Source: a virus. Taken from it: 64,000 nucleotides of DNA. The DNA lies in the IMG/VR virus record IMGVR_UViG_3300042337_000070, positions 1 through 64,000 of that record; one strand, written 5' to 3'. Under the pieces are notes generated by a model. It was not told the DNA's origin. It made no database searches and worked only from the letters and a program-made list of their open reading frames with translations. Of this stretch, positions 3,125 through 23,587 are shown one piece after another. Position 1 is the stretch's first letter. Every line of letters starts with the position of its first letter. The position numbers and the translations under genes are program-made.

Positions 3125-3652
3125 TTACTTTTGAATATGAATGTGATCAAAATGACCCGCTACTTTCCAAAGCACGGTATATCCTGCTGCTCTGGCCCGA
3201 GCGGCCAATGCATCAAACTTGGAACACATAGATCCGTTCGATGCTTCTTTGTTACCAGTGCCAATGTTAATGTCAATGGCACGGCCAGCGTAATGTGCCC
3301 ATCCATGATGAACATGATGGACCCCTCCGAACGCTGGATGCTCGGATACCCTAAACCCCAAATTTTGTAGCATATGACCGTAAGAAACAATCGAACGGTA
3401 TACACTACCGATAATTTGGGAGGGCATATGTGTAGTGTTATTCACATTATGTGGATCATGAATATGATTCATTTTTCCACCATTACGAAGTCTATAGTGA
3501 ATATTCATTTGTGGCACTGTATGCCATCTTGAATTATTATTACCTAGAATGTGATCAAGAAGACTAGGTTCTTCTCCTGAATAGCGATTTTGCGCCTGTG
3601 CTACCGACACTGTTGCCAGCATGATTGCAACGGCTAGAAAAATCTTCTTCAT
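3125..3652 (-). CDS. Secreted peptidase M15-like (Hedgehog/DD-peptidase) peptidoglycan hydrolase
   Basis: Signal peptide MKKIFLAVAIMLATVSVAQA; HYAGRAIDI and HFDHIHI zinc motifs; start moved to ATG 3652 after GAAAGG. Confidence 0.7.
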   Translation of the reverse strand: MKKIFLAVAIMLATVSVAQAQNRYSGEEPSLLDHILGNNNSRWHTVPQMNIHYRLRNGGKMNHIHDPHNVNNTTHMPSQIIGSVYRSIVSYGHMLQNLGFRVSEHPAFGGVHHVHHGWAHYAGRAIDINIGTGNKEASNGSMCSKFDALAARARAAGYTVLWKVAGHFDHIHIQK

Positions 3653-6657: not shown

Positions 6658-6732
6658 TGGCTCAGGGTCAAAGATTCGAACTTCGAATGCCGGAGTCAGA
6701 ATCCGGAGTTTTACCAGTTAAACTAACCCTGA
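6658..6732 (-). tRNA. tRNA-Gln(CTG)
   Basis: Cloverleaf, CCGGA-TTCTGAC-TCCGG, encoded CCA. Confidence 0.9.
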
Positions 6733-6871
6733 TCAATTCGTCATGTAACTTTGGATTTTGTTTCTTCACGACAGGTGCGAGCAATGGAATCAACTCATCA
6801 ACCCATTTCTGCATAAGTGGATGATTGTCATCTTCCATGATTTCTCTTAGAGAGACTTTCACTTTGTTCAT
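6668..6871 (-). CDS. Hypothetical protein whose 3' end overlaps tRNA-Gln(CTG)
   Basis: GAGGA RBS plus ATG; frame runs into the tRNA. Confidence 0.45.
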   Translation of the reverse strand: MNKVKVSLREIMEDDNHPLMQKWVDELIPLLAPVVKKQNPKLHDELIRVSLTGKTPDSDSGIRSSNL

Positions 6872-6886
6872 AATTTCCTCATGAAT

Positions 6887-6961
6887 TGGATCGGGGACTA
6901 GGACTCGAACCTAGAAAGTCGGAACCAAAATCCGACGTTATGCCAATTTAACTATCCCCGA
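6887..6961 (-). tRNA. tRNA-Gln(TTG)
   Basis: TCGGA-TTTTGGT-TCCGA anticodon arm, GGTTCGAGTCC, CCA. Confidence 0.9.
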
Positions 6962-6966
6962 ATATT

Positions 6967-7419
6967 CTATTCTACGATTGCCTGGACAACATGAATGTCA
7001 TCAAGACTTTCAAAGTAACCCAACCAAGGACGACAGTAAGATATTTCTATACCACTATCGTTCTTGAACTTTACAGTCCAATTTTTGTATTCTTCACCTA
7101 CTGGACTTCCAAGAATACGATAAGCATTCCATGCAAGGTCTTGGTCTTTGAAGATGTAAATAATATCAGTGTAATTACGATCACCACTACCGAAAGAGTT
7201 ACCACCGCTGTATTCAGCCCAAACGACATAAACAATATCGCCCTTAGCAACTTCAAAGTCAGTAGGAACAGACTCAGGATAGTAGAAGCGATCCTTATCT
7301 AAGGAAACACCATCTAAATGATTCTCCCACGTTTCTTCCCAAGAACCCCACTCACGTTCCTCATAAAAGGAGTGAATGCAATTGGAGATTATCTTTACAT
7401 ACAAGTGAGTCATTTTCAC
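6967..7419 (-). CDS. Hypothetical phage protein
   Basis: 150-aa ORF; TAG stop. Confidence 0.7.
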   Translation of the reverse strand: MKMTHLYVKIISNCIHSFYEEREWGSWEETWENHLDGVSLDKDRFYYPESVPTDFEVAKGDIVYVVWAEYSGGNSFGSGDRNYTDIIYIFKDQDLAWNAYRILGSPVGEEYKNWTVKFKNDSGIEISYCRPWLGYFESLDDIHVVQAIVE

Positions 7420-7441
7420 TCCATGATATTAATATCAAAAA

Positions 7442-7505
7442 TGGTGGAGTTTACGAGTTACTCCCTTACCAAACAAGTTCTTCTCGTCAAAACTTGTGAC
7501 CATTT
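7442..7505 (-). ncRNA. Putative small CCA-ended two-hairpin RNA
   Basis: ACAAGTT/AACTTGT hairpin, then GGAGT/ACTCC-ACCA minihelix; loops ACGAG and CTCGT are complementary. Confidence 0.35.
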
Positions 7506-7510
7506 CTAAC

Positions 7511-7594
7511 TGGTGCCGAGAGTAGGGTTCGAACCTACCGTGCTATAAGCGTCCGATTTACAGTCGGGTGCCCGTCCACTCAGGCGGTCTCGGC
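7511..7594 (-). tRNA. tRNA-Tyr(GTA)
   Basis: CT-GTA-AA loop, long variable arm, CCA. Confidence 0.9.
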
Positions 7595-7597
7595 AAT

Positions 7598-7671
7598 TGG
7601 TTGTTCCGACTGGTAACGATCCAGTGTCTATGTGTTATCAGCACATTGCTCTACCTTTGAGCTACGGAACA
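7598..7671 (-). tRNA. tRNA-Ile(GAT)
   Basis: ATGTG-CTGATAA-CACAT; T-loop ATCGTTA. Confidence 0.9.
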
Positions 7672-7677
7672 GTAAAC

Positions 7678-8154
7678 TCAATACTCTAGACGCTCCTGAT
7701 TGCACTCGAAAGTATACCAACCTTCAGCACGAAAAGCATCGATGATACGGTGACGATCATCAAAGATGGCACCGACTTTGTATCCAGGATTAGCAGCAAG
7801 CCAGTCCTTAATGATACGAACCTTCAACTTATCATCATCTTCACGATTCTTCGAAGGACGCATATGCAAGTCTTCGTCTAGAAACTCAAAATCAATATGA
7901 CGACGAAGCCACTCTAGCGATACTTCACGAAAACGCTCGTCACGACCAGTTACAACAATGATCTTATCACCGAGCATCTTACCACGGTCATATGCAAGAG
8001 CATGAAGAACGTCTAGCACTGCCTGATAAGGCTCGTCCTTATCCTGTCCTGCAAAGAACTCATCCCAGTTCTTCTTACCGTTCCGCAAATGATGCCACCG
8101 ATGATGCACATTAGCAAGAGTGTTATCAATGTCGAATACCCAAAGTTTCTTCAA
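7678..8154 (-). CDS. HAD-family polynucleotide 3'-phosphatase (PseT/PNKP phosphatase domain)
   Basis: FDIDNTLA, VTGR, LHMRP..NREDD..LK, IFDDR. Confidence 0.85.
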   Translation of the reverse strand: MKKLWVFDIDNTLANVHHRWHHLRNGKKNWDEFFAGQDKDEPYQAVLDVLHALAYDRGKMLGDKIIVVTGRDERFREVSLEWLRRHIDFEFLDEDLHMRPSKNREDDDKLKVRIIKDWLAANPGYKVGAIFDDRHRIIDAFRAEGWYTFECNQERLEY

Positions 8155-8181
8155 TTCCGTTTCCTTTCTCGATTATGTCTC

Positions 8182-8210
8182 ATTATAGCAAATAGAAAAC
8201 GGAATGTCAA
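8182..8210 (-). promoter_or_regulatory. Consensus sigma70 promoter
   Basis: TTGACA-N17-TATAAT. Confidence 0.85.
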
Positions 8211-8215
8211 GTCCG

Positions 8216-8289
8216 TGGTGCTTCTGCCCGGTAACGATCCGAGGTCTGAGTCTTACCAAGACCCTGTTCTACCTTTGAACTACAGAAGC
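8216..8289 (-). tRNA. tRNA-Thr(GGT)
   Basis: TT-GGT-AA loop, CCA. Confidence 0.9.
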
Positions 8290-8293
8290 GAAA

Positions 8294-8367
8294 TGGCACT
8301 GATGCCAGGTATCGATCCTAGTCTAACTGCTCCACAAACAGTTGTGCTACCTTTACACTACATCAGC
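8294..8367 (-). tRNA. tRNA-His(GTG), no encoded G-1
   Basis: ACTGT-TTGTGGA-GCAGT; base -1 is T, discriminator G. Confidence 0.85.
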
Positions 8368-8368
8368 A

Positions 8369-8449
8369 TGGACTCCACGACAGGATTCGAACCTGCATTT
8401 GCATCCAGTTACCTTACTCTTGATTCGTATTCAAGGTGGATACGTGGAG
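8369..8449 (-). tRNA. Atypical D-armless tRNA-like gene, anticodon ACG (Arg?)
   Basis: Perfect acceptor CTCCACG/CGTGGAG, T-arm GGTTCGAATCC, CTTGA-ATACGAA-TCAAG arm, no D-arm. Confidence 0.6.
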
Positions 8450-8452
8450 ATA

Positions 8453-8529
8453 TGGTACCCTCGGTCGGATTCGAACCGACAACAGCACGGGTTTGAGCCG
8501 ATTGCCTCTTCCAATTGGGCTACGAGGGC
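8453..8529 (-). tRNA. tRNA-Leu(CAA), short variable arm
   Basis: CT-CAA-AC loop; weak anticodon stem; CCA. Confidence 0.75.
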
Positions 8530-8692
8530 ATTTTCTCTTTTACAACAATCAACATGCGTTCACAGATCAAACTCTCGTATATGTAAACGCCAGGATCAAG
8601 ATTGATCCAGTTGTCTCTCGGTTTCACGGGCATATCGCAGTATATCGATACAGTCTTATCTTTTCCTACAATACCCGCTCTCAATCTAAACA

Positions 8693-8768
8693 TGGTGCGT
8701 CCCCTAAGAATCAAACTCAGTCCTATTGTGCTTCAAACAATCGTGCAGATCACTTACACCAGAGACGC
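8693..8768 (-). tRNA. tRNA-Phe(GAA)
   Basis: ATTGT-TTGAAGC-ACAAT; CCA. Confidence 0.85.
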
Positions 8769-8772
8769 ATAT

Positions 8773-8847
8773 TGGTCACCCATAGGGGTTTCGATCCCCT
8801 TTCTCTTGCTTGAAAGGCAAGCGTCCTAGCCACTAGACGAATGGGCG
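8773..8847 (-). tRNA. tRNA-Glu(TTC)
   Basis: CTTGC-CTTTCAA-GCAAG; CCA. Confidence 0.9.
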
Positions 8848-8851
8848 TTAT

Positions 8852-8928
8852 TGGTAGACTGTCTCGGATTCGAACCGAGGACCCATCGCTTAAGAGGCGA
8901 TTGCTCTAACCAACTGAGCTAACAGTCC
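8852..8928 (-). tRNA. tRNA-Lys(CTT)
   Basis: ATCGC-CTCTTAA-GCGAT; canonical. Confidence 0.95.
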
Positions 8929-8933
8929 ATAAA

Positions 8934-9009
8934 TGGTGGAGGATACCGGGATCGAACCGATGACCTTCTGAATGCAAATCAGACGCTCTCCCAACTGAGC
9001 TAATCCCCC
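8934..9009 (-). tRNA. tRNA-Ala(TGC)
   Basis: Canonical, G3:U70. Confidence 0.95.
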
Positions 9010-9017
9010 CTTCATGC

Positions 9018-9080
9018 GACGGCCAGAAAGATCATATCTCCCTCTGATTACTCAGCCCGGTAATATCGGTGCTGACCGTC
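9018..9080 (-). ncRNA. Putative small four-way-junction RNA
   Basis: 9-bp closing stem GACGGTCAG/CTGGCCGTC enclosing three short hairpins including CTGA-GTAA-TCAG. Confidence 0.4.
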
Positions 9081-9083
9081 TAA

Positions 9084-9158
9084 TGGCGCATCGTAGGGGT
9101 ATCGATCCCCTCTATTCCGTTCGACAGACGGATGTCCACACCTGCTGACTCACGATGC
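9084..9158 (-). tRNA. tRNA-Asp(GTC)
   Basis: TCCGT-CTGTCGA-ACGGA; CCA. Confidence 0.9.
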
Positions 9159-9165
9159 ATAAAAC

Positions 9166-9242
9166 TGGTGCCCCTCCTCCGATTCGAACGGAGAACCTTC
9201 TGATTCTAAGTCAGACACCTCTACCAGTTGGGCTAGAGGGGC
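9166..9242 (-). tRNA. tRNA-Leu(TAG), short variable arm
   Basis: TCTGA-CTTAGAA-TCAGA; CCA. Confidence 0.9.
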
Positions 9243-9246
9243 AAAC

Positions 9247-9321
9247 TGGTGCGTCCTGATGGAATCGAACCACCGACACTCGGTATGTAACACCGATGTT
9301 CTACCTCTGAACTAAGGACGC
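9247..9321 (-). tRNA. tRNA-Val(TAC)
   Basis: TCGGT-GTTACAT-ACCGA; CCA. Confidence 0.9.
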
Positions 9322-9333
9322 ATAAACTCTAAT

Positions 9334-9469
9334 GATACAGTAGCCCCACCCCAGGTGAACCATGTCGCTCTGTATCTGAATGATTACTCTCGTTTCGTCA
9401 TTCCCCGATGTTCGTTGGGCTCTGTCTTGCCCCAACATCTGTTGTGCTCCTAGTGACAGTTCACACAAC
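9334..9469 (-). ncRNA. Putative four-hairpin structured RNA
   Basis: Adjacent stems GTTGTG/CACAAC, GATGTT/AACATC, GAATGA/TCATTC, GATACAG/CTGTATC. Confidence 0.5.
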
Positions 9470-9475
9470 CGGCTC

Positions 9476-9559
9476 TGGCGGAGGATGAAGGAATCGAACC
9501 ATCAACCTTTCGGTGGCGCAGTTTTCAAGACTGTGTGTCCTCCATGGACGCCATCCTCC
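9476..9559 (-). tRNA. tRNA-Ser(TGA)
   Basis: CT-TGA-AA loop, variable arm, GCCA. Confidence 0.9.
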
Positions 9560-9564
9560 AATTC

Positions 9565-9654
9565 TGGCGGAGAGTATAGGATTCGAACCTATGGAAGCAT
9601 TTCTGCCTCAATCATTTAGCAAACGACCGCTTTCGACCGCTCAGCCAACTCTCC
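9565..9654 (-). tRNA. tRNA-Ser(GCT)
   Basis: TT-GCT-AA loop, long variable arm, GCCA. Confidence 0.95.
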
Positions 9655-9662
9655 GTATATTC

Positions 9663-9806
9663 TTACATTCCAAACTGACGCTTGACACAAATGACAGCGG
9701 CATCAAACGCCTTGCCGATATCTTCATCATCTTCCATTGTGAGATTTAGAATCTCTCGCATTTCTGCGATGGCAGCGTTTCGTGTTTCCTCAGTAATCTG
9801 AAACAT
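9663..9806 (-). CDS. Small hypothetical protein (47 aa, MFQITEETRNAAIAEM...)
   Basis: GAGGAG RBS; below ORF-track length cutoff. Confidence 0.6.
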   Translation of the reverse strand: MFQITEETRNAAIAEMREILNLTMEDDEDIGKAFDAAVICVKRQFGM

Positions 9807-9829
9807 ATTCACTCTCCTCACGATAAAAA

Positions 9830-9907
9830 TGGTCGGGGTAGCAGGATTCGAACCTGCGACCTACTGACTCCAAATCAGCCACGCTAACCAGACTGCGCTA
9901 CACCCCG
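9830..9907 (-). tRNA. tRNA-Pro(TGG)
   Basis: Canonical CGGGGTG acceptor, TT-TGG-AG loop. Confidence 0.95.
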
Positions 9908-9923
9908 TTATTTCAGTTTCAAC

Positions 9924-9952
9924 ATAATATCAAATCTTACTAGGACTGTCAA
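9924..9952 (-). promoter_or_regulatory. Sigma70 promoter for downstream tRNA block
   Basis: TTGACA-N17-TATTAT. Confidence 0.75.
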
Positions 9953-9974
9953 GCACTTTTTGCATTCCCGAAAC

Positions 9975-10052
9975 TGGCATGGGAGGTAGGATTCGAACCC
10001 ACGATCACGGTTTTGGAGACCGATGCTTTAGACCAGACTAAGCTACACCCAT
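9975..10052 (-). tRNA. tRNA-Trp(CCA)
   Basis: CT-CCA-AA loop; GCCA end. Confidence 0.9.
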
Positions 10053-10057
10053 AAAAC

Positions 10058-10132
10058 TGGAAGCAGGTGTGGGAACTGCCCCCACTTCTATCGGCGTATG
10101 AAACCGATGAGATTCTAAACCTCCCACCTGCA
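10058..10132 (-). tRNA. tRNA-Met(CAT), initiator-like and divergent
   Basis: TT-CAT-AC loop; 1:72 mismatch (T:T); aberrant T-loop GGCAGTT. Confidence 0.7.
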
Positions 10133-10139
10133 ATAACTC

Positions 10140-10214
10140 TGGTGCTGATAGTTGGAAACGAACCAACCTTAGAGGCCTTATGAGAGCCTTTCGACACCTT
10201 GCCGACCTACCAGC
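10140..10214 (-). tRNA. tRNA-Met or Ile2 (CAT)
   Basis: AGGCT-CTCATAA-GGCCT; ACCA. Confidence 0.85.
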
Positions 10215-10219
10215 GAAAA

Positions 10220-10389
10220 TTTGTTACTTCGTCAACGGACTATCACGACCGTTAGAGTTGGGCAGTTCCCTTCTACCACTTTACGCCCTAAACGTCACGC
10301 CCAGGAATCGAACCCGGTCAGGAACTGTTACACTCGTATCGCTTTCTACGTTTCGAACCGTTTGGACAGTCCGTTGACGAAGTAACAAA
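10220..10389 (-). ncRNA. Y-RNA (YrlA)-like RNA with permuted tRNA domain
   Basis: Perfect 22-bp terminal inverted repeat; inner CAGTTCC/GGAACTG stem enclosing a T-arm (CCGGG-TTCGATT-CCTGG), a closed stem, then a D-loop-like AGTGGTAGA. Confidence 0.55.
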
Positions 10390-10390
10390 C

Positions 10391-10550
10391 GGGAGTTACT
10401 ACCATCTCCCAAGCCCCTATTTCGTTGAGGCAGGTTACCTGGATAAGACGATGTGCTAAGACGAACATTTAGGTTGTCGCCACCTATATCCATACAGTAT
10501 AGCACACACATACTATATGGCAGACCAAGAGTATCCATCTCTCTTAGTCG
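10391..10550 (-). ncRNA. Putative multi-hairpin structured RNA
   Basis: Five or more consecutive hairpins (GACTAAGAG/CTCTTGGTC, 12-bp CCATATAGTATG/TATACTGTATGG, TAGGT/ACCTA, GCCTC/GGGGC, GGGAG/CTCCC). Confidence 0.5.
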
Positions 10551-10555
10551 TGTCT

Positions 10556-10630
10556 TGGAGCGGGCGATCGGGATCGAACCGACGACCAACAGTTTGGAAG
10601 ACTGTGACTCTACCACTGAGTTACACCCGC
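10556..10630 (-). tRNA. tRNA-Gly(TCC)
   Basis: Canonical, TCCA end. Confidence 0.95.
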
Positions 10631-10638
10631 ATTATATA

Positions 10639-10714
10639 TGGTGCCGGTAGCAGGAGTCGAACCCACGACCTGATGATTACGAATCAACTGCTCTACCAAC
10701 TGAGCTATACCGGC
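10639..10714 (-). tRNA. tRNA-Thr(CGT)
   Basis: TT-CGT-AA loop; canonical. Confidence 0.95.
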
Positions 10715-10718
10715 GTAT

Positions 10719-10794
10719 TGGAGGATCCAGTCGGCCACGATCCGACAACCTTGGGATTAAAAGTCCCTTGCTCTGCCAATTGAGCTATGGATCC
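10719..10794 (-). tRNA. tRNA-Lys(TTT)
   Basis: CT-TTT-AA loop; T-loop ATCGTGG. Confidence 0.9.
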
Positions 10795-10798
10795 ATAT

Positions 10799-10876
10799 TG
10801 GCTCCCAGTGCTGGATTCGAACCAACCTTCATACTCGTTAACAGCGAGTCGCCCTCACCTAGATGGCTCACTGGGA
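10799..10876 (-). tRNA. tRNA-Asn(GTT)
   Basis: ACTCG-CTGTTAA-CGAGT; GCCA. Confidence 0.9.
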
Positions 10877-10884
10877 ATAAACTT

Positions 10885-10962
10885 TGGAGTTGCTGATGGG
10901 ACTCGAACCCACATTCAAAGGTTTTGCAGACCTTGTCGTATCCAATTCCGACACACAGCAAC
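10885..10962 (-). tRNA. tRNA-Cys(GCA)
   Basis: AAGGT-CTGCAAA-ACCTT; U73. Confidence 0.9.
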
Positions 10963-10969
10963 AGTTATC

Positions 10970-11173
10970 TTATGCTATCTTATACTCCTTATAACGTCTC
11001 TGCAACATTACTGATGCCTTGCCGTTATACTTCTGTTCCTTGAACGACTCATACTTGTCCCAAGCAGGACTAAAGGTGTTGAAAGTTCCCTTATACAGGA
11101 CCTTGTTGCCCTGAGACAACTCAACTACCCAGTATGATTCTCTCTTTACCATTTCTTCCTTCATTGCTCGCAC
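10970..11173 (-). CDS. Hypothetical protein
   Basis: 67-aa ORF downstream of a promoter. Confidence 0.55.
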   Translation of the reverse strand: MRAMKEEMVKRESYWVVELSQGNKVLYKGTFNTFSPAWDKYESFKEQKYNGKASVMLQRRYKEYKIA

Positions 11174-11194
11174 TCTCCGAAGTTGATGTTGAGT

Positions 11195-11223
11195 ATTATA
11201 TAGTTCACAGAAACGAAAGTCAA
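11195..11223 (-). promoter_or_regulatory. Sigma70 promoter
   Basis: TTGACT-N17-TATAAT. Confidence 0.8.
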
Positions 11224-11254
11224 GCAGTTTTTTTACATTTTTTCAACTTTTTTT

Positions 11255-11346
11255 TGGTAGGGATGCTCGGAATCGAACCGAGTCGAGAACGGTAATCTGC
11301 CGCTAGAAGGTTTATAAGACCTCCCTGTGTACCAACACCCACCCCT
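11255..11346 (-). tRNA. Atypical tRNA with anticodon TAT (Ile?) and long variable arm
   Basis: AGGGGTG/CATCCCT-ACCA; GAGGT-CTTATAA-ACCTT; about 24-nt variable region; short D-arm. Confidence 0.75.
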
Positions 11347-11351
11347 GTAAC

Positions 11352-11428
<77 letters not shown>

Positions 11429-12122: not shown

Positions 12123-13510
12123 ACCTTCAATCCTTTGAACTTGTTTCCGTTACCAGTGTTATTCCCAAACTTAGGTTTTGGTAATACTACCTCTTCCTCT
12201 TGTCCTGTATCTGATAAATCTTGTGCCGATGTTTCAACATCATACAGCGTCATCTTAGACTTGTCAACCCCAATAACGAAACGTTTCATATTATCTAGGT
12301 TATCATAACGGTTTTTTAATTGCTTCACCATAATCTGATTGAGCGCCTTCATCTGTTCGGAAGCCACAAGCACCCATTGAAGATCGAGCGTTGCGGGTAG
12401 ACCGAACGATTCAGCGGTATCAGTCATGTCGGGATCGGAACTGTTATATCCAGCACGATTCAACTGAGTTGCAGACCAGATAGGTAGTGCGGATTGTTGC
12501 GCCAAACCACGAACCTCTTCGGCGATCGACTTAACGTAAGTGTATGTATCTTGTGCGCCAGATGCACGAATACGAGACGATGCCATCAGATTGAGATAGT
12601 CAATCATAATCACATCAGGGACAAAGTTCTTTTTAAGTCTCAACTCGTTCAACAGCGCCTTGATATGCACAACCGTTGCAGAGGTCGCAGGAAACTCTTT
12701 GATGATGAGTTTGCCCTGTGTCTTCTGCTTCAATCTCTCAACCTTCTTATCATACATGTCTTTCGACAAAACGAGAAGGACGTCAATGGCAATGTTGAGT
12801 GTGTTTGCCTCGATACGCTTTGCAATCTCTTCCTCTGCCATTTCAAGAGTGATATACAAAACACTCTTACCCATCACCAGATACCCGGCTGATAGGTGAC
12901 AAAGAAACAACGTTTTACCAGTATGAACACCACCCATGATAAGGTTGAGTGTTTTCTTGGACACACCATTCTTGGTTGCCTTGTTAAACACATCAATGTC
13001 AAACGGCATCTTTTCAACATGCCGATGATAATACTCAAAGCGTTCGTTTGTCTGTTCTAGAAAGTCATGGCCAACGTTAGGATCAAACGTGATAGCAAGA
13101 GCATCGGACAACAGTTCTGGAATAGCGCCTTTGTCATGCTTGCCCTTGCCATTCATAATCTCCAGTGCTTCTGTCATTGCATTGAAGATAGCACGTTCCT
13201 GACAGAACTTCTCGGTTGACTCTACAAGCCAATCGATGTTTGTCTGGTTCGTATCCTTTTCGATTTCACCGATAGTTTTAATAACACTCTTGATAGTATC
13301 GTCGGTGGACCCTTTTAAGGAGTCCACCTCGATCATCAAAGCATCATATGTTGGTTGAGTATTATATTTGAGAACAAAACCAGCAATCTCTTTAAATAGA
13401 ATCCTATCCTCTGAATTAGAAAAATACTCAGGTTTCAGAAACGGAAGGACTTTCTGTGTGTAGTCCTCCCTCTGAATCAGATTCTTCAAGATTGTTGTTT
13501 CGAGTCTCAT
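12119..13510 (-). CDS. 41: T4 gp41-like replicative DNA helicase
   Basis: Walker A GGVHTGKT, YITLEMAEE, IDYLNL, SATQLNR, ESFGLPAT, KQLKNRY. Confidence 0.95.
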   Translation of the reverse strand: MRLETTILKNLIQREDYTQKVLPFLKPEYFSNSEDRILFKEIAGFVLKYNTQPTYDALMIEVDSLKGSTDDTIKSVIKTIGEIEKDTNQTNIDWLVESTEKFCQERAIFNAMTEALEIMNGKGKHDKGAIPELLSDALAITFDPNVGHDFLEQTNERFEYYHRHVEKMPFDIDVFNKATKNGVSKKTLNLIMGGVHTGKTLFLCHLSAGYLVMGKSVLYITLEMAEEEIAKRIEANTLNIAIDVLLVLSKDMYDKKVERLKQKTQGKLIIKEFPATSATVVHIKALLNELRLKKNFVPDVIMIDYLNLMASSRIRASGAQDTYTYVKSIAEEVRGLAQQSALPIWSATQLNRAGYNSSDPDMTDTAESFGLPATLDLQWVLVASEQMKALNQIMVKQLKNRYDNLDNMKRFVIGVDKSKMTLYDVETSAQDLSDTGQEEEVVLPKPKFGNNTGNGNKFKGLKV

Positions 13511-13802
13511 TCGCTTCTACGTCTCCCAAATCAAGCAGCAAGGAATTTAAAATCAGTCCAAGAATGTCATTGAACTTTTGGTTCTTCCTTAGTGTGACCA
13601 TCGATAGGTCATTCGTCTTTACAATTTCGTAATCATACTGAAGGCGAGGTATGTCATCCTCTCCTAACTTGAAACGAACAGTAGTATAACGATACACTAC
13701 TCCAGCGTATGGGTCAAGTAGTAATTCGATAGGACACGTCGATCCATCTTCCTTATCGTTGAAAAGATCGTCTCGGAAGTTATAATCAATCCCCACTTGC
13801 AT
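13428..13802 (-). CDS. Probable gp40-like head vertex assembly chaperone
   Basis: Synteny between uvsX and 41; GVVYRYTTV...LQYDYEI pattern. Confidence 0.55.
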   Translation of the reverse strand: MQVGIDYNFRDDLFNDKEDGSTCPIELLLDPYAGVVYRYTTVRFKLGEDDIPRLQYDYEIVKTNDLSMVTLRKNQKFNDILGLILNSLLLDLGDVEANETRNNNLEESDSEGGLHTESPSVSET

Positions 13803-18995: not shown

Positions 18996-19164
18996 AGTGT
19001 TTCCTTATTTCAACTTTGATGGTATGAGCGCAGGACGCACATACAACTGAGCAACCATGTTTCTCCATGATTTCTTGAACAGAAGGAACATCGTTTTCAA
19101 AATGATGTTCCAGGATTTGCTTGACGGTATTGGAAGAGATTGTGTTACAGGAACATAGAATCAT
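18970..19164 (-). CDS. bfd: Bfd-like [2Fe-2S] ferredoxin
   Basis: MILCSCN...CASC spacing. Confidence 0.7.
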   Translation of the reverse strand: MILCSCNTISSNTVKQILEHHFENDVPSVQEIMEKHGCSVVCASCAHTIKVEIRKHYENDLRQG

Positions 19165-19216
19165 TTTTACCTCTACTTACATATATATTGTAGCAGATAT
19201 TTTCTCGGAGGTCAAG

Positions 19217-19597
19217 ATGCCATTCGTTCTTTCACTCATTTCCTCAGGCGCTATCAAATGGATTGCCATTCTGATCATTGTAGCCTTACTGGGCGGAAGT
19301 CTTTATATGAAACATAGAGAGATCGTGAATCTGGAAAAGGAAACGGCACTTCAAGCCTATAACATCAATCAACTCAAACAAGACCTCAAAGACAAGTTGC
19401 GCCATCTTGAACAAATGGCAGAGATAAACAGACACAAGAGCGAGATTGTCGCTAACTTATACATTGAAAGAGATAACTTGGAATCTCAACTAAGAGACAT
19501 TGATGCTAAGATCAATCAACACGTTGGTGCAGGTCGTGACAAACAGTCTTCCCAAATTCTCAAAGATACATTCAAATCCCTAGGAGAAATGAAATGA
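19217..19597 (+). CDS. Probable i-spanin (Rz-like)
   Basis: N-terminal TM plus coiled coil; ATG after GGAGG; overlaps lipoprotein gene. Confidence 0.65.
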   Translation: MPFVLSLISSGAIKWIAILIIVALLGGSLYMKHREIVNLEKETALQAYNINQLKQDLKDKLRHLEQMAEINRHKSEIVANLYIERDNLESQLRDIDAKINQHVGAGRDKQSSQILKDTFKSLGEMK

Positions 19598-19872
19598 AGT
19601 GGTTCATATTAGTTGCGGCATTGTTTCTTGCGAGTTGCAATGAACCTCAACAAATTGTTACATCATACAGATATATGGTAGTTCACCCAGATGAAGCAAT
19701 GTATTATTGCCCAGTTTTGAAGAAGTTTCCTGACTGGAAGACACTGACGGATGCACAGGTTGCAAAGACAGTAATCGAGTTACATAGAAACAATCTTACT
19801 TGTAAAAGTTCCATCGAATCGATTAGAAAGTTTTTGAATGACGCTGATATGAGGTTGAAAAAGGGGAGCTGA
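19594..19872 (+). CDS. Probable o-spanin lipoprotein (Rz1-like)
   Basis: Lipobox FLAS-C; Cys/Pro pattern. Confidence 0.7.
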   Translation: MKWFILVAALFLASCNEPQQIVTSYRYMVVHPDEAMYYCPVLKKFPDWKTLTDAQVAKTVIELHRNNLTCKSSIESIRKFLNDADMRLKKGS

Positions 19873-19886: not shown

Positions 19887-20120
19887 TTACTTAGGTGGTT
19901 CTGTTTCTAGAGCCGTCTTCACTGTTGTTGCTTCTGTAACCTTACGCATTACTGCCATAACAGCAGCAGCAACTAGGCCAGCGACAGGAACAACCATTGC
20001 TTGTGGAACACCCCATCCAGTTAGAACAGTGACCCAATCAATGCCAGCGACAGATTCGGTGACAACTGGTAGAACAGCCATTAGAACTGCAACCAGATAT
20101 GTTTTATAACCTTCTAGCAT
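19887..20120 (-). CDS. Holin-like small membrane protein
   Basis: MLEGYKTY N-terminus, two TM segments; CTAAATA at 20166-20160 upstream. Confidence 0.5.
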   Translation of the reverse strand: MLEGYKTYLVAVLMAVLPVVTESVAGIDWVTVLTGWGVPQAMVVPVAGLVAAAVMAVMRKVTEATTVKTALETEPPK

Positions 20121-20162
20121 AATAATCTCCTTTCGAAAGAGGACCCGTAGGTCCTCATCTAT

Positions 20163-20606
20163 TTAGATTTCTATCCACTTTCGGATACGATCGATATATG
20201 CTTCCTTCTCGTCAGCAACATAATCTTTTCCTAAGAAGTTGCCTTTACTATCTCTTTTAGGATACTTATAGATACGATCCTTGACAGGACCATACTTGTT
20301 CAACATTTCAAACACTCTTGGTAGAATGTAGAAGTTTAGCACAACAGGATCGTGAATCTTGTTTTCAACCGACTTGTATGGCTTGCCTGCGAGATATGCC
20401 CGAGCAAGAAACGTTGCACGGTTCTCGTTACGAACGTCCCACTTACGGTGATTGCTGATTGATCGATACTTCTCGATTAGTTTGCGATCAGGTGTTCCTT
20501 GATCGCATTGCCATCTGATTTGCTTTTTGAGTTTGTGCTCCTCATGACGAATGACTTTTGATTCTAGACCGAGGTGCTTTGATTTGATTTTTAGTTCAAT
20601 ACTCAT
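20163..20606 (-). CDS. Conserved basic phage protein of unknown function (downstream of amber leader)
   Basis: ATG 20606 after AAGGA; LKIKSKHL..E...IRHEE...HRK..VR.E.RA..LARAYL.GKPY. Confidence 0.8.
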   Translation of the reverse strand: MSIELKIKSKHLGLESKVIRHEEHKLKKQIRWQCDQGTPDRKLIEKYRSISNHRKWDVRNENRATFLARAYLAGKPYKSVENKIHDPVVLNFYILPRVFEMLNKYGPVKDRIYKYPKRDSKGNFLGKDYVADEKEAYIDRIRKWIEI

Positions 20607-20699
20607 TTGTGTTTCCTTTTGTTTGACTGGTTCATAAAATAAAGACAAAAGGAATTTTGGTGGTGATCTAGAAACCTAACGAAAAAAATTCTTGAACAT
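20607..20699 (-). promoter_or_regulatory. Amber-containing leader peptide / translational attenuator
   Basis: GAAAGG-N8-ATG; MFKNFFR-TAG(20678-20676)-VSRSPPKF...; TTCCTTTTGT (20654-20645) pairs with ACAAAAGGAA (20622-20613), which contains the SD. Confidence 0.7.
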
Positions 20700-20723
20700 T
20701 GTTATAACCTTTCATAAAGTAAT

Positions 20724-20797
20724 TGGCGCCCCTAGTGGGAATTGAACTCACATTGGTCGTTTTAGAGACGACTGCATTGCCATTATGCTATAGGGGC
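20724..20797 (-). tRNA. Amber suppressor tRNA (anticodon CTA)
   Basis: GCCCCTA/TAGGGGC-G-CCA; D-arm GCAT/ATGC; GTCGT-CTCTAAA-ACGAC; T-loop TTCAATT. Confidence 0.9.
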
Positions 20798-20803
20798 GCA
20801 AAC

Positions 20804-20810
20804 TATTTAG
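20804..20810 (-). promoter_or_regulatory. Late-type promoter upstream of suppressor tRNA
   Basis: CTAAATA 6 nt before tRNA 5' end. Confidence 0.5.
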
Positions 20811-22816: not shown

Positions 22817-23587
22817 TTATTCGGCTAGAAGGGCAACACCCTCTCTACCGAGAAGCGAGCGAATACGCATTAGGATCTGAAGAACAACACCAAAAACACC
22901 CAGTGCCATCCAGCCGAAGAACACGAAGCCCCAATGTAGTGGTGCAACAAATAGTTCTTCCATGAACCAGAACGTATGACCCCATTCGTTTAGACCAACG
23001 TTTGGAATAATCATAAATGGACCAATCGCTACAATCAAGAATGCTAGAGAGAAACCCTTAGCAAAGTATGGAATGCGTGTCTTAGCATAGAAGAATGCAC
23101 CAACAGCAATGATTGAATAGATTGGATAGCTCATGTAGAACTCGATAATATGACTTGGAGTAAAGTCAGTATCACGAATAACTGTCATGTGCCAGGTGCC
23201 GTCCTGTTCTGTAAAGAAAGAAGCACCCCAGTAGATTGCCACTGCATATACAACAAGCCACTGGACTAGAACAACAAGACGACGCATTTCTTCACGGGCA
23301 GTCAAGCCAGCAAAGTCACGGGTTCTTGTCTTCCAAAGATAACCTGCAAGAGCAAGTCCTGATACTAGTTCTAGTGGGATTTCTGTCCAGAGAATGCTCA
23401 TCCAATATGTCTGAAACTCTGGTGCAAACGAATCAAGGCCAGCACGCCAGCCATACACTTGTTCATAAATGCGAACGATTAGATAGAAAACATTTAGAAG
23501 GCCTAAGCCAATCCACATGCCTCGAAGGTCTACGACCTCATTTACGTCGGTTGCCACGGCCTTAGCCGATTGATTTACAACGCTCAT
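22817..23587 (-). CDS. pmoC: Particulate methane monooxygenase subunit C
   Basis: GLDSFAPEFQTYW, EQDGTWHMTVIRDTDFTPSHIIEFY, PNVGLNEWGHTFWFMEELF..PLHWGF; Methylocystis-type N-terminus VDLRGMWIGL. Confidence 0.97.
   Translation of the reverse strand: MSVVNQSAKAVATDVNEVVDLRGMWIGLGLLNVFYLIVRIYEQVYGWRAGLDSFAPEFQTYWMSILWTEIPLELVSGLALAGYLWKTRTRDFAGLTAREEMRRLVVLVQWLVVYAVAIYWGASFFTEQDGTWHMTVIRDTDFTPSHIIEFYMSYPIYSIIAVGAFFYAKTRIPYFAKGFSLAFLIVAIGPFMIIPNVGLNEWGHTFWFMEELFVAPLHWGFVFFGWMALGVFGVVLQILMRIRSLLGREGVALLAE

Follow-up and report, generated by a model that had tools for sequence, protein, structure and literature searches.

A suppressor tRNA, a TAG-interrupted leader and a hairpin over a Shine-Dalgarno sequence as a candidate translational gate in phages

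The stretch of DNA analyzed here (the window) comprises the first 64,000 nucleotides (64 kb) of the 107,942-bp virus record IMGVR_UViG_3300042337_000070, which has a CheckV completeness of 65% and represents a large phage with genes densely packed on the minus strand in the standard genetic code. On this strand, a suppressor tRNA with the anticodon CUA is followed by a short leader interrupted by an in-frame TAG, a hairpin that holds the Shine-Dalgarno (SD) sequence of the next gene, and that gene itself, which codes for a basic protein of 147 amino acids (aa). Our results suggest, with a probability of roughly 0.7, that these elements form a translational gate whose input is stop-codon suppression. 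The arrangement had been pointed out earlier from the letters of the window alone (the original prediction), and the motif CTAAATA, the tRNA(CUA), the leader, the hairpin and the gene were all found at the minus-strand positions given there. The observation itself is confirmed, and its interpretation is supported by a strong comparative test, with more than 100 distant phage loci keeping the design. The elements of the unit are listed below in the direction of transcription.

20804 to 20810, minus strand: promoter-like motif CTAAATA, 6 nt 5' of the tRNA
20724 to 20797, minus strand: suppressor tRNA, anticodon CUA, reading UAG (ARAGORN; Rfam RF00005)
20708 to 20713, minus strand: SD of the leader, GAAAGG, 8 nt before its ATG
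20679 to 20699, minus strand: first part of the leader open reading frame (ORF), MFKNFFR, with its ATG at 20699
20676 to 20678, minus strand: gate codon TAG (stop 1), with G as the next base
20658 to 20675, minus strand: readthrough segment VSRSPP, with the Pro-Pro codons at 20663-20658
20645 to 20654, minus strand: anti-SD arm TTCCTTTTGT, beginning 4 nt past the Pro-Pro codons
20607 to 20657, minus strand: continuation of the leader frame (KFLLSLFYEPVKQKETQ), in frame through the hairpin to the ATG of the gene
20613 to 20622, minus strand: SD arm ACAAAAGGAA, with the SD of the gene, AAGGA, 6 nt before its ATG
20163 to 20606, minus strand: downstream gene (ORF), 147-aa basic protein with an isoelectric point of 9.8

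The tRNA(CUA) is a regular tRNA gene. It matched Rfam RF00005 with 64.1 bits (E 3e-13; threshold 29), and has a complete cloverleaf with a 7-bp acceptor stem, G73 and an encoded CCA; the label 'Pyl' given to it by ARAGORN is nominal and identifies no amino acid. In the leader, the TAG is preceded by a CGT codon, and the frame beyond it is the zero frame. The two arms TTCCTTTTGT (20654-20645) and ACAAAAGGAA (20622-20613) are exact 10-nt complements, and the region folds into this 10-bp hairpin in both its minimum free energy and its centroid structure. At locus L001, which is 95% identical, the pairing probability of the SD is 0.99. A genome-wide scan for an SD and start codon followed by a short ORF, a TAG and a long frame returned this leader as the sole credible case in 108 kb, and besides this single TAG-gated frame, the available sequence shows no evident client for the suppressor tRNA. 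Patterns of TAG followed by Pro-Pro are by themselves at chance level in this genome (6 matches, compared with 1-7 in shuffles), and among these 6 matches the leader reported here is the only one with an ATG start and a long following frame. A second ATG at 20715-20713 overlaps the SD of the leader on the same strand; its frame is a different one, meets a TAG at 20670-20668, lacks an SD of its own and is not the frame conserved in relatives.

Relatives of the downstream gene were fetched three times, as 80 IMG/VR loci, 80 metagenome loci found with a divergent member as seed, and 80 loci found with remote seeds of about 40% identity. IMG/VR and the metagenomes yielded 116 distinct upstream regions, and further ones came from the remote family members. 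Leader counts refer to a set of 70 short leaders, representatives sharing no more than 90% identity, and helix statistics to 76 representatives. Nearly all regions contain an SD, a start codon, 1-10 codons, a first stop codon (stop 1) and 4-8 codons ending in Pro-Pro, usually followed by a second stop codon (stop 2). In the typical order the 3' end of the tRNA comes first and the SD-pairing arm last, with the ATG of the gene 47-71 nt past stop 2. The regions are alike in design and unlike in sequence, and the protein identities among the loci drop to about 40%. Minimal leaders are reduced to a bare ATG-TAG or TTG-TAG, followed by I-K/T-K/R-P-P-stop.

The original prediction had expected homologues to keep an in-frame TAG upstream, and this was borne out: of the 70 leaders, 68 have TAG, 2 have TGA and none has TAA as the first in-frame stop ahead of Pro-Pro. 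A purine after a stop codon is a context favouring suppression, and the base after stop 1 is a purine in 65 of 70 leaders (A 52, G 13, C 5, T 0). The expected co-occurrence with a suppressor tRNA was also found, as 77 of 103 distinct loci with sufficient flank carry one within 700 nt upstream. Wherever both the anticodon and the leader stop could be read they agreed, with about 80 CUA/TAG pairs, 3 UCA/TGA pairs and no discordant pair. The UCA/TGA pairs are found at L068 (with its copies L083 and L084; ML-TGA-VYAPP-TAA), L116 (M-TGA-VCKPP-TAG) and L199 (MIIFS-TGA-...IRGPP). The tRNA(UCA) of L116 is 80% identical to the tRNA(CUA) of L064 and has the same anticodon stem, and this shared scaffold indicates that the anticodon and the leader stop changed together. 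L068 and L116, the two UCA/TGA cases included in a quick tree, were not sisters in it; a single origin of these two variants is possible.

Several loci with TAG leaders have tRNAs with odd anticodon loops, called by ARAGORN as 'ccta' or 'ct' in place of a triplet (L219, L038, L040, L051, L107, L145, L150 and L242). The tRNA of this kind at L219 ends 95 nt 5' of the gene. These tRNAs may be suppressors with non-standard loops. Two other leaders are unusual in a different way, both at about 880-1000 of their loci. L214 has a TGA and a TAG in one frame (MN-TGA-ISN-TAG-ITPV...), and L196 reads ATG-TTC-TGA with its Pro-Pro-stop in a different frame; no tRNA was found beside either leader in the available 1 kb.

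A covarying anti-SD had likewise been proposed and was recovered in the relatives. The duplex energy between the stretch after Pro-Pro and the SD region averaged -13.6 kcal/mol within a locus, compared with -7.6 kcal/mol across loci, and for most loci the own partner was among the best two of 57. A helix of 8 bp or more without interruption was present in 61 of the 76 representatives, compared with 10% of shuffled and 25% of cross-locus controls. The 5' arms of these helices comprise 49 different sequences and start -5 to +9 nt relative to where Pro-Pro ends. The pairing probability of the SD was 0.80, and 0.65 when the upstream sequence was shuffled (Wilcoxon 2e-10). It is this conservation and covariation in relatives, and not the window alone, that places the hairpin far above chance, as perfect 10-bp inverted repeats with loops of 3-40 nt occur 49 times in the 108-kb genome.

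The peptide motif was only partly as predicted. Pro-Pro is kept, being present in 70 of about 76 representatives, while the proposed form R-[AGS]-PP is not the specific motif of the family. Third codon positions of the Pro-Pro codons vary, and all four Pro codons occur at both positions, indicating a constraint at the level of the peptide rather than of a CCUCC-like RNA motif. Pro-Pro comes directly after an R or K in 44 of 70 leaders and directly before a stop in 61 of 70, including all 43 [R/K]-P-P leaders. Among the nine leaders without this stop, six have R-x-P-P, one has RGPPP and two have IGPP with the stop one codon later. The association between [R/K]PP and a stop after Pro-Pro is significant (Fisher p = 0.002, ignoring phylogeny). 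Stop 2 is TAA in 49 leaders, TAG in 9, TGA in 3 and absent in 9. RGPP, RAPP and RDPP occur as RxPP variants among the relatives, the majority ending in [R/K]-P-P-stop. By sequence, the conserved core is Pro-Pro with a stop directly behind it ([R/K]-P-P-stop), and the window, with RSPP and no stop, belongs to a minority class. Termination is slow after a C-terminal Pro-Pro. The two leader classes fit slow termination at Pro-Pro-stop and elongation arrest at RAPP-like motifs, respectively. The continuation of the frame beyond Pro-Pro is a feature of the window's clade: in the close relatives L002, L004 and L007 it stops at a TGA overlapping the ATG of the gene (ATGA), and in L008 it stops in the loop.

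In nine loci from two clades, an unrelated ORF of 83 aa is inserted between the gate and the hairpin (L057 at 3248-3511, L042, L092, L110, L115, L119, L140, L154 and L159). With M-x(1-4)-TAG at its beginning and ...W-A-P-P-stop at its end, immediately 5' of the anti-SD, it can be translated in these loci solely via readthrough of the TAG at codon 3-5. The family carries the motifs FHFNKKHLED and WSTKETPDNPSTKG and gave no match in Pfam or PHROG. Its free-standing relatives have ordinary starts and no Pro-Pro end. An insert with the gate at its start and Pro-Pro-stop at its end indicates that the gate and the Pro-Pro-stop/anti-SD are separable functional ends, and the distance from gate to Pro-Pro-stop does not appear to be critical.

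The full module is also present in two cultured phages. Synechococcus phage BUCT-ZZ01 (host S. elongatus PCC 7942) has a tRNA(CUA), the leader MGGDAS-TAG-INLKPP-TAA, and an arm CTAATGTG that pairs with CACATTAG at the SD. Bacteriophage DSS3_MAL1 has a tRNA(CUA), the leader MKS-TAG-IRPPP-TGA, and an arm TCTCCTTGAT that pairs with ATCAAGGAGA. The units lie at about 118,100-118,420 of ON615601 (BUCT-ZZ01) and about 13,410-13,620 of MN602268 (DSS3_MAL1). Since both phages have tractable hosts, the steps proposed below are directly testable.

In the 108-kb genome, all 22 copies of the motif CTAAATA are on the minus (coding) strand and none is on the plus strand; they lie mostly 10-40 nt 5' of gene starts, just before an SD and start codon. 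On the basis of this strand bias and position, CTAAATA is likely to be a T4-like late promoter of this phage; we take it to be akin to the T4-type late promoter TATAAATA. The spacing between the tRNA and the leader is 24 nt, with no sigma-70-like promoter match between them, and the tRNA, the leader and the gene may be co-transcribed as a late unit. At the end of the unit, two further elements were noted, for which a terminator or promoter role is conceivable.

20139 to 20166, minus strand: unit end, with a second CTAAATA (20166-20160) over the stop codon of the gene and a GC-rich hairpin (20156-20139) before the next gene

Copies of CTAAATA on the minus strand of the window include those at 20810, 20166, 23651, 33003, 42820, 43958, 57678 and 59273.

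The proposed mechanism is as follows. The transcript would probably start at the late-type motif CTAAATA and carry the tRNA, the leader and the gene. By sequence and covariation, the SD of the gene is locked in the hairpin, and ribosomes would enter at the leader's own SD. When release factor 1 (RF1) wins at the UAG, the ribosome would leave about 22 nt before the anti-SD arm, a distance given by the coordinates, and the hairpin would be expected to stay closed. When the tRNA(CUA) decodes the UAG, the ribosome would advance 6 codons to R-S-P-P. The geometry, deduced from the coordinates and standard ribosome footprints, is consistent with this: with the UAG in the A site, the leading edge would lie at about 20663, short of the arm at 20654-20645, and once the second Pro codon (20660-20658) occupies the A site it would lie at about 20645, covering the whole anti-SD arm. 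Once the anti-SD is covered, the SD would be free and a second ribosome could start at the ATG at 20606. In most relatives, slow termination at Pro-Pro-stop would hold the ribosome in place. For the window's clade, the SD would be opened by an elongation pause at RSPP, by ribosomes moving through the hairpin, or by a combination of the two, possibly with an N-terminally extended fusion protein as a by-product. Because no stop follows Pro-Pro in the window, plain unwinding by the translating ribosome could open the SD without a stall, and the stalling step is therefore less certain for the window than for most relatives. Competition at the UAG implies that the output would follow how much active, charged suppressor tRNA there is relative to release factor.

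Several findings weigh against this mechanism. Readthrough, stalling and SD unmasking are all steps that we infer from sequence. At -8.9 kcal/mol, the window hairpin is weak and does not differ significantly from shuffled sequences (z -1.0), and among the relatives the pairing probability of the SD exceeds that of the controls only moderately. RNAalifold found no consensus helix in a MAFFT alignment of 76 leaders, which is explained by helix registers and loop lengths that differ between lineages; the covariation evidence accordingly consists of our own register-free statistics, uncorrected for phylogeny. About a quarter of the loci have no suppressor tRNA inside 700 nt, and in several of them it lies about 1 kb upstream or the tRNA is oddly called by ARAGORN. 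In addition, the leader is missing in L121 and L217 and Pro-Pro is missing in L093, L225 and L214, indicating that gating and stalling are not obligatory for the gene.

The leading alternative, a doubtful one, is readthrough-dependent coupling without arrest, in which the UAG acts as the gate, transit or termination-reinitiation opens the SD, and Pro-Pro tunes the dwell time or is incidental. It contests the stalling step and not the gate, and it is most plausible for the window's clade, where the leader frame crosses the hairpin in frame with the gene and the leaders of L002, L004 and L007 end on the start codon itself. L093 and L225 point the same way, being TAG leaders that lack Pro-Pro and stay open across the hairpin until a stop at the SD or ATG. 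Coupling alone does not account, however, for the retention of Pro-Pro despite synonymous codon variation, or for an immediate stop placed within a few nucleotides of the helix start (-5 to +9 nt, as above), which a parked ribosome needs and transit does not. It also leaves aside that the inserted 83-aa ORFs end in Pro-Pro-stop whereas their free-standing relatives do not.

Less probable still is a second alternative, in which the sensed variable is release-factor activity or the translational state of the host (RF1 depletion, or synthetase charging via a private codon) and the tRNA is a fixed component whose level as such is not read. UAG readthrough depends on the tRNA/RF1 ratio and on charging, and the tRNA is apparently co-transcribed with the leader, so its dose may be fixed relative to the mRNA. 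The sequence fits this alternative and a gate driven by the suppressor tRNA equally well. However, the UCA/TGA switch in 3 lineages would change the competitor from RF1 to RF2 in front of the same gated family, which argues against an RF1-specific role.

A third alternative is that TAG is an ordinary sense codon (genetic code 15) and the leader a constitutive arrest-peptide upstream ORF (uORF) without any sensing. Phage suppressor tRNAs are indeed strongly associated with recoded genomes (bioRxiv 10.1101/2021.08.26.457843), but the genome itself makes this reading very improbable. Under the standard code (code 11) the ORFs are long and unbroken, reaching 2083 aa. TAG terminates 10 of 108 long minus-strand ORFs, with the next stop a median of 5.5 codons further on, and no long ORF in this genome is split by an in-frame TAG. 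A reassignment of TAG or TGA was rejected for this genome. In a crude test on the related 8-kb loci, reading TAG as sense added no more coding than reading TGA as sense, and across lineages the TAG stands at one fixed place in the leader.

A chance juxtaposition of an unrelated TAG-ended uORF, a weak hairpin in the 5' untranslated region and a nearby tRNA in a tRNA-rich region is hardly credible. In its favour, the window hairpin is by itself not significant, the genome has many 10-bp inverted repeats, and the family gene always lies within tRNA arrays, hence nearly always near some tRNA. The loci are, however, no near-identical copies (identities down to about 40%, 49 distinct arms), and they share the bias of stop 1 towards TAG, the perfect anticodon-stop match including the 3 UCA/TGA cases, covarying helices and a consistent placement of Pro-Pro-stop.

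The original prediction regarded the arrangement as undescribed, and in our literature search, no report of a natural leader gated by a suppressor tRNA was found. Stop-codon recoding as a late-gene timer and RAPP-type arrest uORFs come closest to it. The RAPP-like arrest peptides (ApdA, ApdP, ApcA; SecM with RAGP; RAPP/RGPP uORFs; PMC12992588) share a short uORF with an Arg-x-Pro-Pro-type end and an adjoining SD-hiding structure, and there too, freeing of the SD is attributed to a parked ribosome. The core of that class is R-A-P-P, R-G-P-P, R-A-P-G or R-A-G-P, compared with R-S-P-P in the window; in mutagenesis of ApdA/ApdP, RAPP and RGPP gave the strongest arrest, while RSPP and RDPP, which are strongly avoided in proteomes, were partially permissive (PMC12992588). 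RAPP-like peptides sense export or insertion via an N-terminal signal and are relieved by pulling force, whereas the input here would be a tRNA. The leader of the window has only 7+6 residues and no signal or transmembrane segment, the leaders of relatives are as short as start-stop plus 4-5 residues, and the arrest motif can be reached only after stop readthrough.

Attenuation of the erm/cat type is similar in its layout, as a tiny SD-led leader ORF lies directly 5' of an SD-sequestering hairpin here as well, and the position of the ribosome on the leader decides the opening of the SD. The inducer of erm/cat is an antibiotic in the exit tunnel, whereas here it would be stop decoding by a suppressor tRNA encoded just upstream. 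No resistance gene was found downstream of the leader by Pfam or PHROG, and the conserved, tRNA-matched in-frame stop points to an input other than a ribosome-bound small molecule. In alternatively coded phages, in-frame stops silence late and lysis genes until suppression, and the idea of sensing suppressor tRNAs has been raised (Borges et al., bioRxiv 10.1101/2021.08.26.457843). The window resembles these phages in its suppressor tRNA and in the holin-like and spanin-like genes beside the unit. They have stops in many coding sequences genome-wide, whereas here the code is standard and one stop lies in a leader of non-coding size, the effect would be exerted via SD unmasking, and the regulated protein contains no suppressed residue.

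The +1 frameshift of prfB (RF2) is comparable in that, at an early in-frame stop, competition between a release factor and an alternative event in the A site is the signal. The window has no slippery CUU-U and no internal SD 3 nt upstream, the alternative event would be cognate suppressor decoding, and the product is not a release factor. To our knowledge, this frameshift is the only other natural sensor based on competition at a stop codon. Translational coupling as in MS2 (coat-replicase and coat-lysis) also requires upstream translation to open a downstream start, and the window's clade resembles it in that the leader frame stays open across the hairpin and reaches or enters the start codon. 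Unlike MS2, the upstream frame here is interrupted by a stop that would be passable only with a dedicated tRNA.

If the gate operates as proposed, it would be the first natural regulatory element with nonsense suppression by a dedicated tRNA as its input, linking arrest peptides, phage tRNA arrays and stop-codon recoding. Genome reports often state that such tRNAs have no target that could be found, as for phage Summit (PMC9022506); the 'orphan' suppressor tRNAs of standard-code phages would now gain a concrete and conserved client. The arrangement suggests a route into recoding in which one gated leader precedes many recoded genes. Additionally, the unit might serve as a compact natural readthrough reporter for genetic-code-expansion work.

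The downstream protein belongs to a very large, uncharacterized phage family, which the leader flags as functionally tied to suppression. A word-indexed search gave at least 956 homologues, and a profile search of 1.8 billion representatives gave 2,314 cluster representatives; all are small stand-alone proteins. Their N-terminus is invariant from Met1 (MSIELKIKSKHL), which indicates that the ATG at 20606 is the true start and that the upstream frame lies outside the family protein. Among prokaryote genomes, a single match was found in 185,579 species, on a 156-kb contig of a metagenome-assembled genome, so the family appears to be essentially phage-only. Neither the 147-aa protein nor its family matched Pfam or PHROGs, and a sequence-profile search of the PDB with the protein gave only E 0.5 or worse. 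An AlphaFold 2 (AF2) model (predicted local distance difference test, pLDDT, 88) contains two long antiparallel helices forming a hairpin (residues 3-36 and 41-72) and a small alpha/beta part; more helices, a beta-hairpin and a C-terminal helix follow the helical hairpin. Foldseek found nothing at E<=0.001 with this model, VIA-align found generic helical hairpins only (Z at most 8.7, residues 1-76, the C-terminal part having had no separate search), and the ESM Atlas gave no usable match to the protein.

The N-terminal helical hairpin is near-invariant across phages of cyanobacteria, alphaproteobacteria and gammaproteobacteria. From this diversity of hosts we infer, with low confidence, that the target is one which different hosts have in common, for example the translation machinery. 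The role in termination, ribosome rescue or suppressor control raised in the original prediction is speculative, and none of the tools used gave a functional clue. A speculative extension, which we regard as unlikely, is that the family targets components of termination or decoding (release factors, ribosome or suppressor tRNA), so that the leader would be a sensor of the genetic-code state and suppression would feed back on itself. Were this true, the feedback could be positive, giving a bistable code switch, or negative, giving homeostasis, and the unit would be a private-codon regulatory circuit that could represent a minimal precursor of full stop-codon recoding in phages.

Within the phage tRNA arrays that always surround the family gene, two neighbours are recurrent though confined to subsets of loci: 12 loci have a DUF2828/DUF7788 protein and 21 have an RNaseH-like PF04308 protein (L019:4595-6013, L009:6853-7326 and equivalents). 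A PTH2 gene was absent from the 65%-complete genome of the window; DSS3_MAL1 and the L069 phage each have one, and no TAG leader was seen in front of it. In BUCT-ZZ01 (L081:3385-3803), ARAGORN reported a permuted gene for transfer-messenger RNA (tmRNA) with the tag ANDETFSMALAA, about 0.5 kb 3' of the gene of the family.

The other features of the window that were recorded around the unit are given below.

6658 to 11428, minus strand: tRNA array of 27 genes, most amino acids covered (ARAGORN)
19121 to 19872, plus strand: Rz-like and Rz1/LysC-like spanin candidates, on the strand opposite to the 147-aa gene
19887 to 20120, minus strand: holin-like hydrophobic ORF, 77 aa, immediately 3' of the 147-aa gene
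22817 to 23587, minus strand: pmoC/amoC gene (Pfam AmoC, E 9e-109, full length)

The spanin and holin (lysis) neighbourhood of the window is not conserved among the related loci. The suppressor tRNA stands apart from the 27-tRNA array, 9 kb away from it. The phage-borne pmoC/amoC gene suggests a methane- or ammonia-oxidising host.

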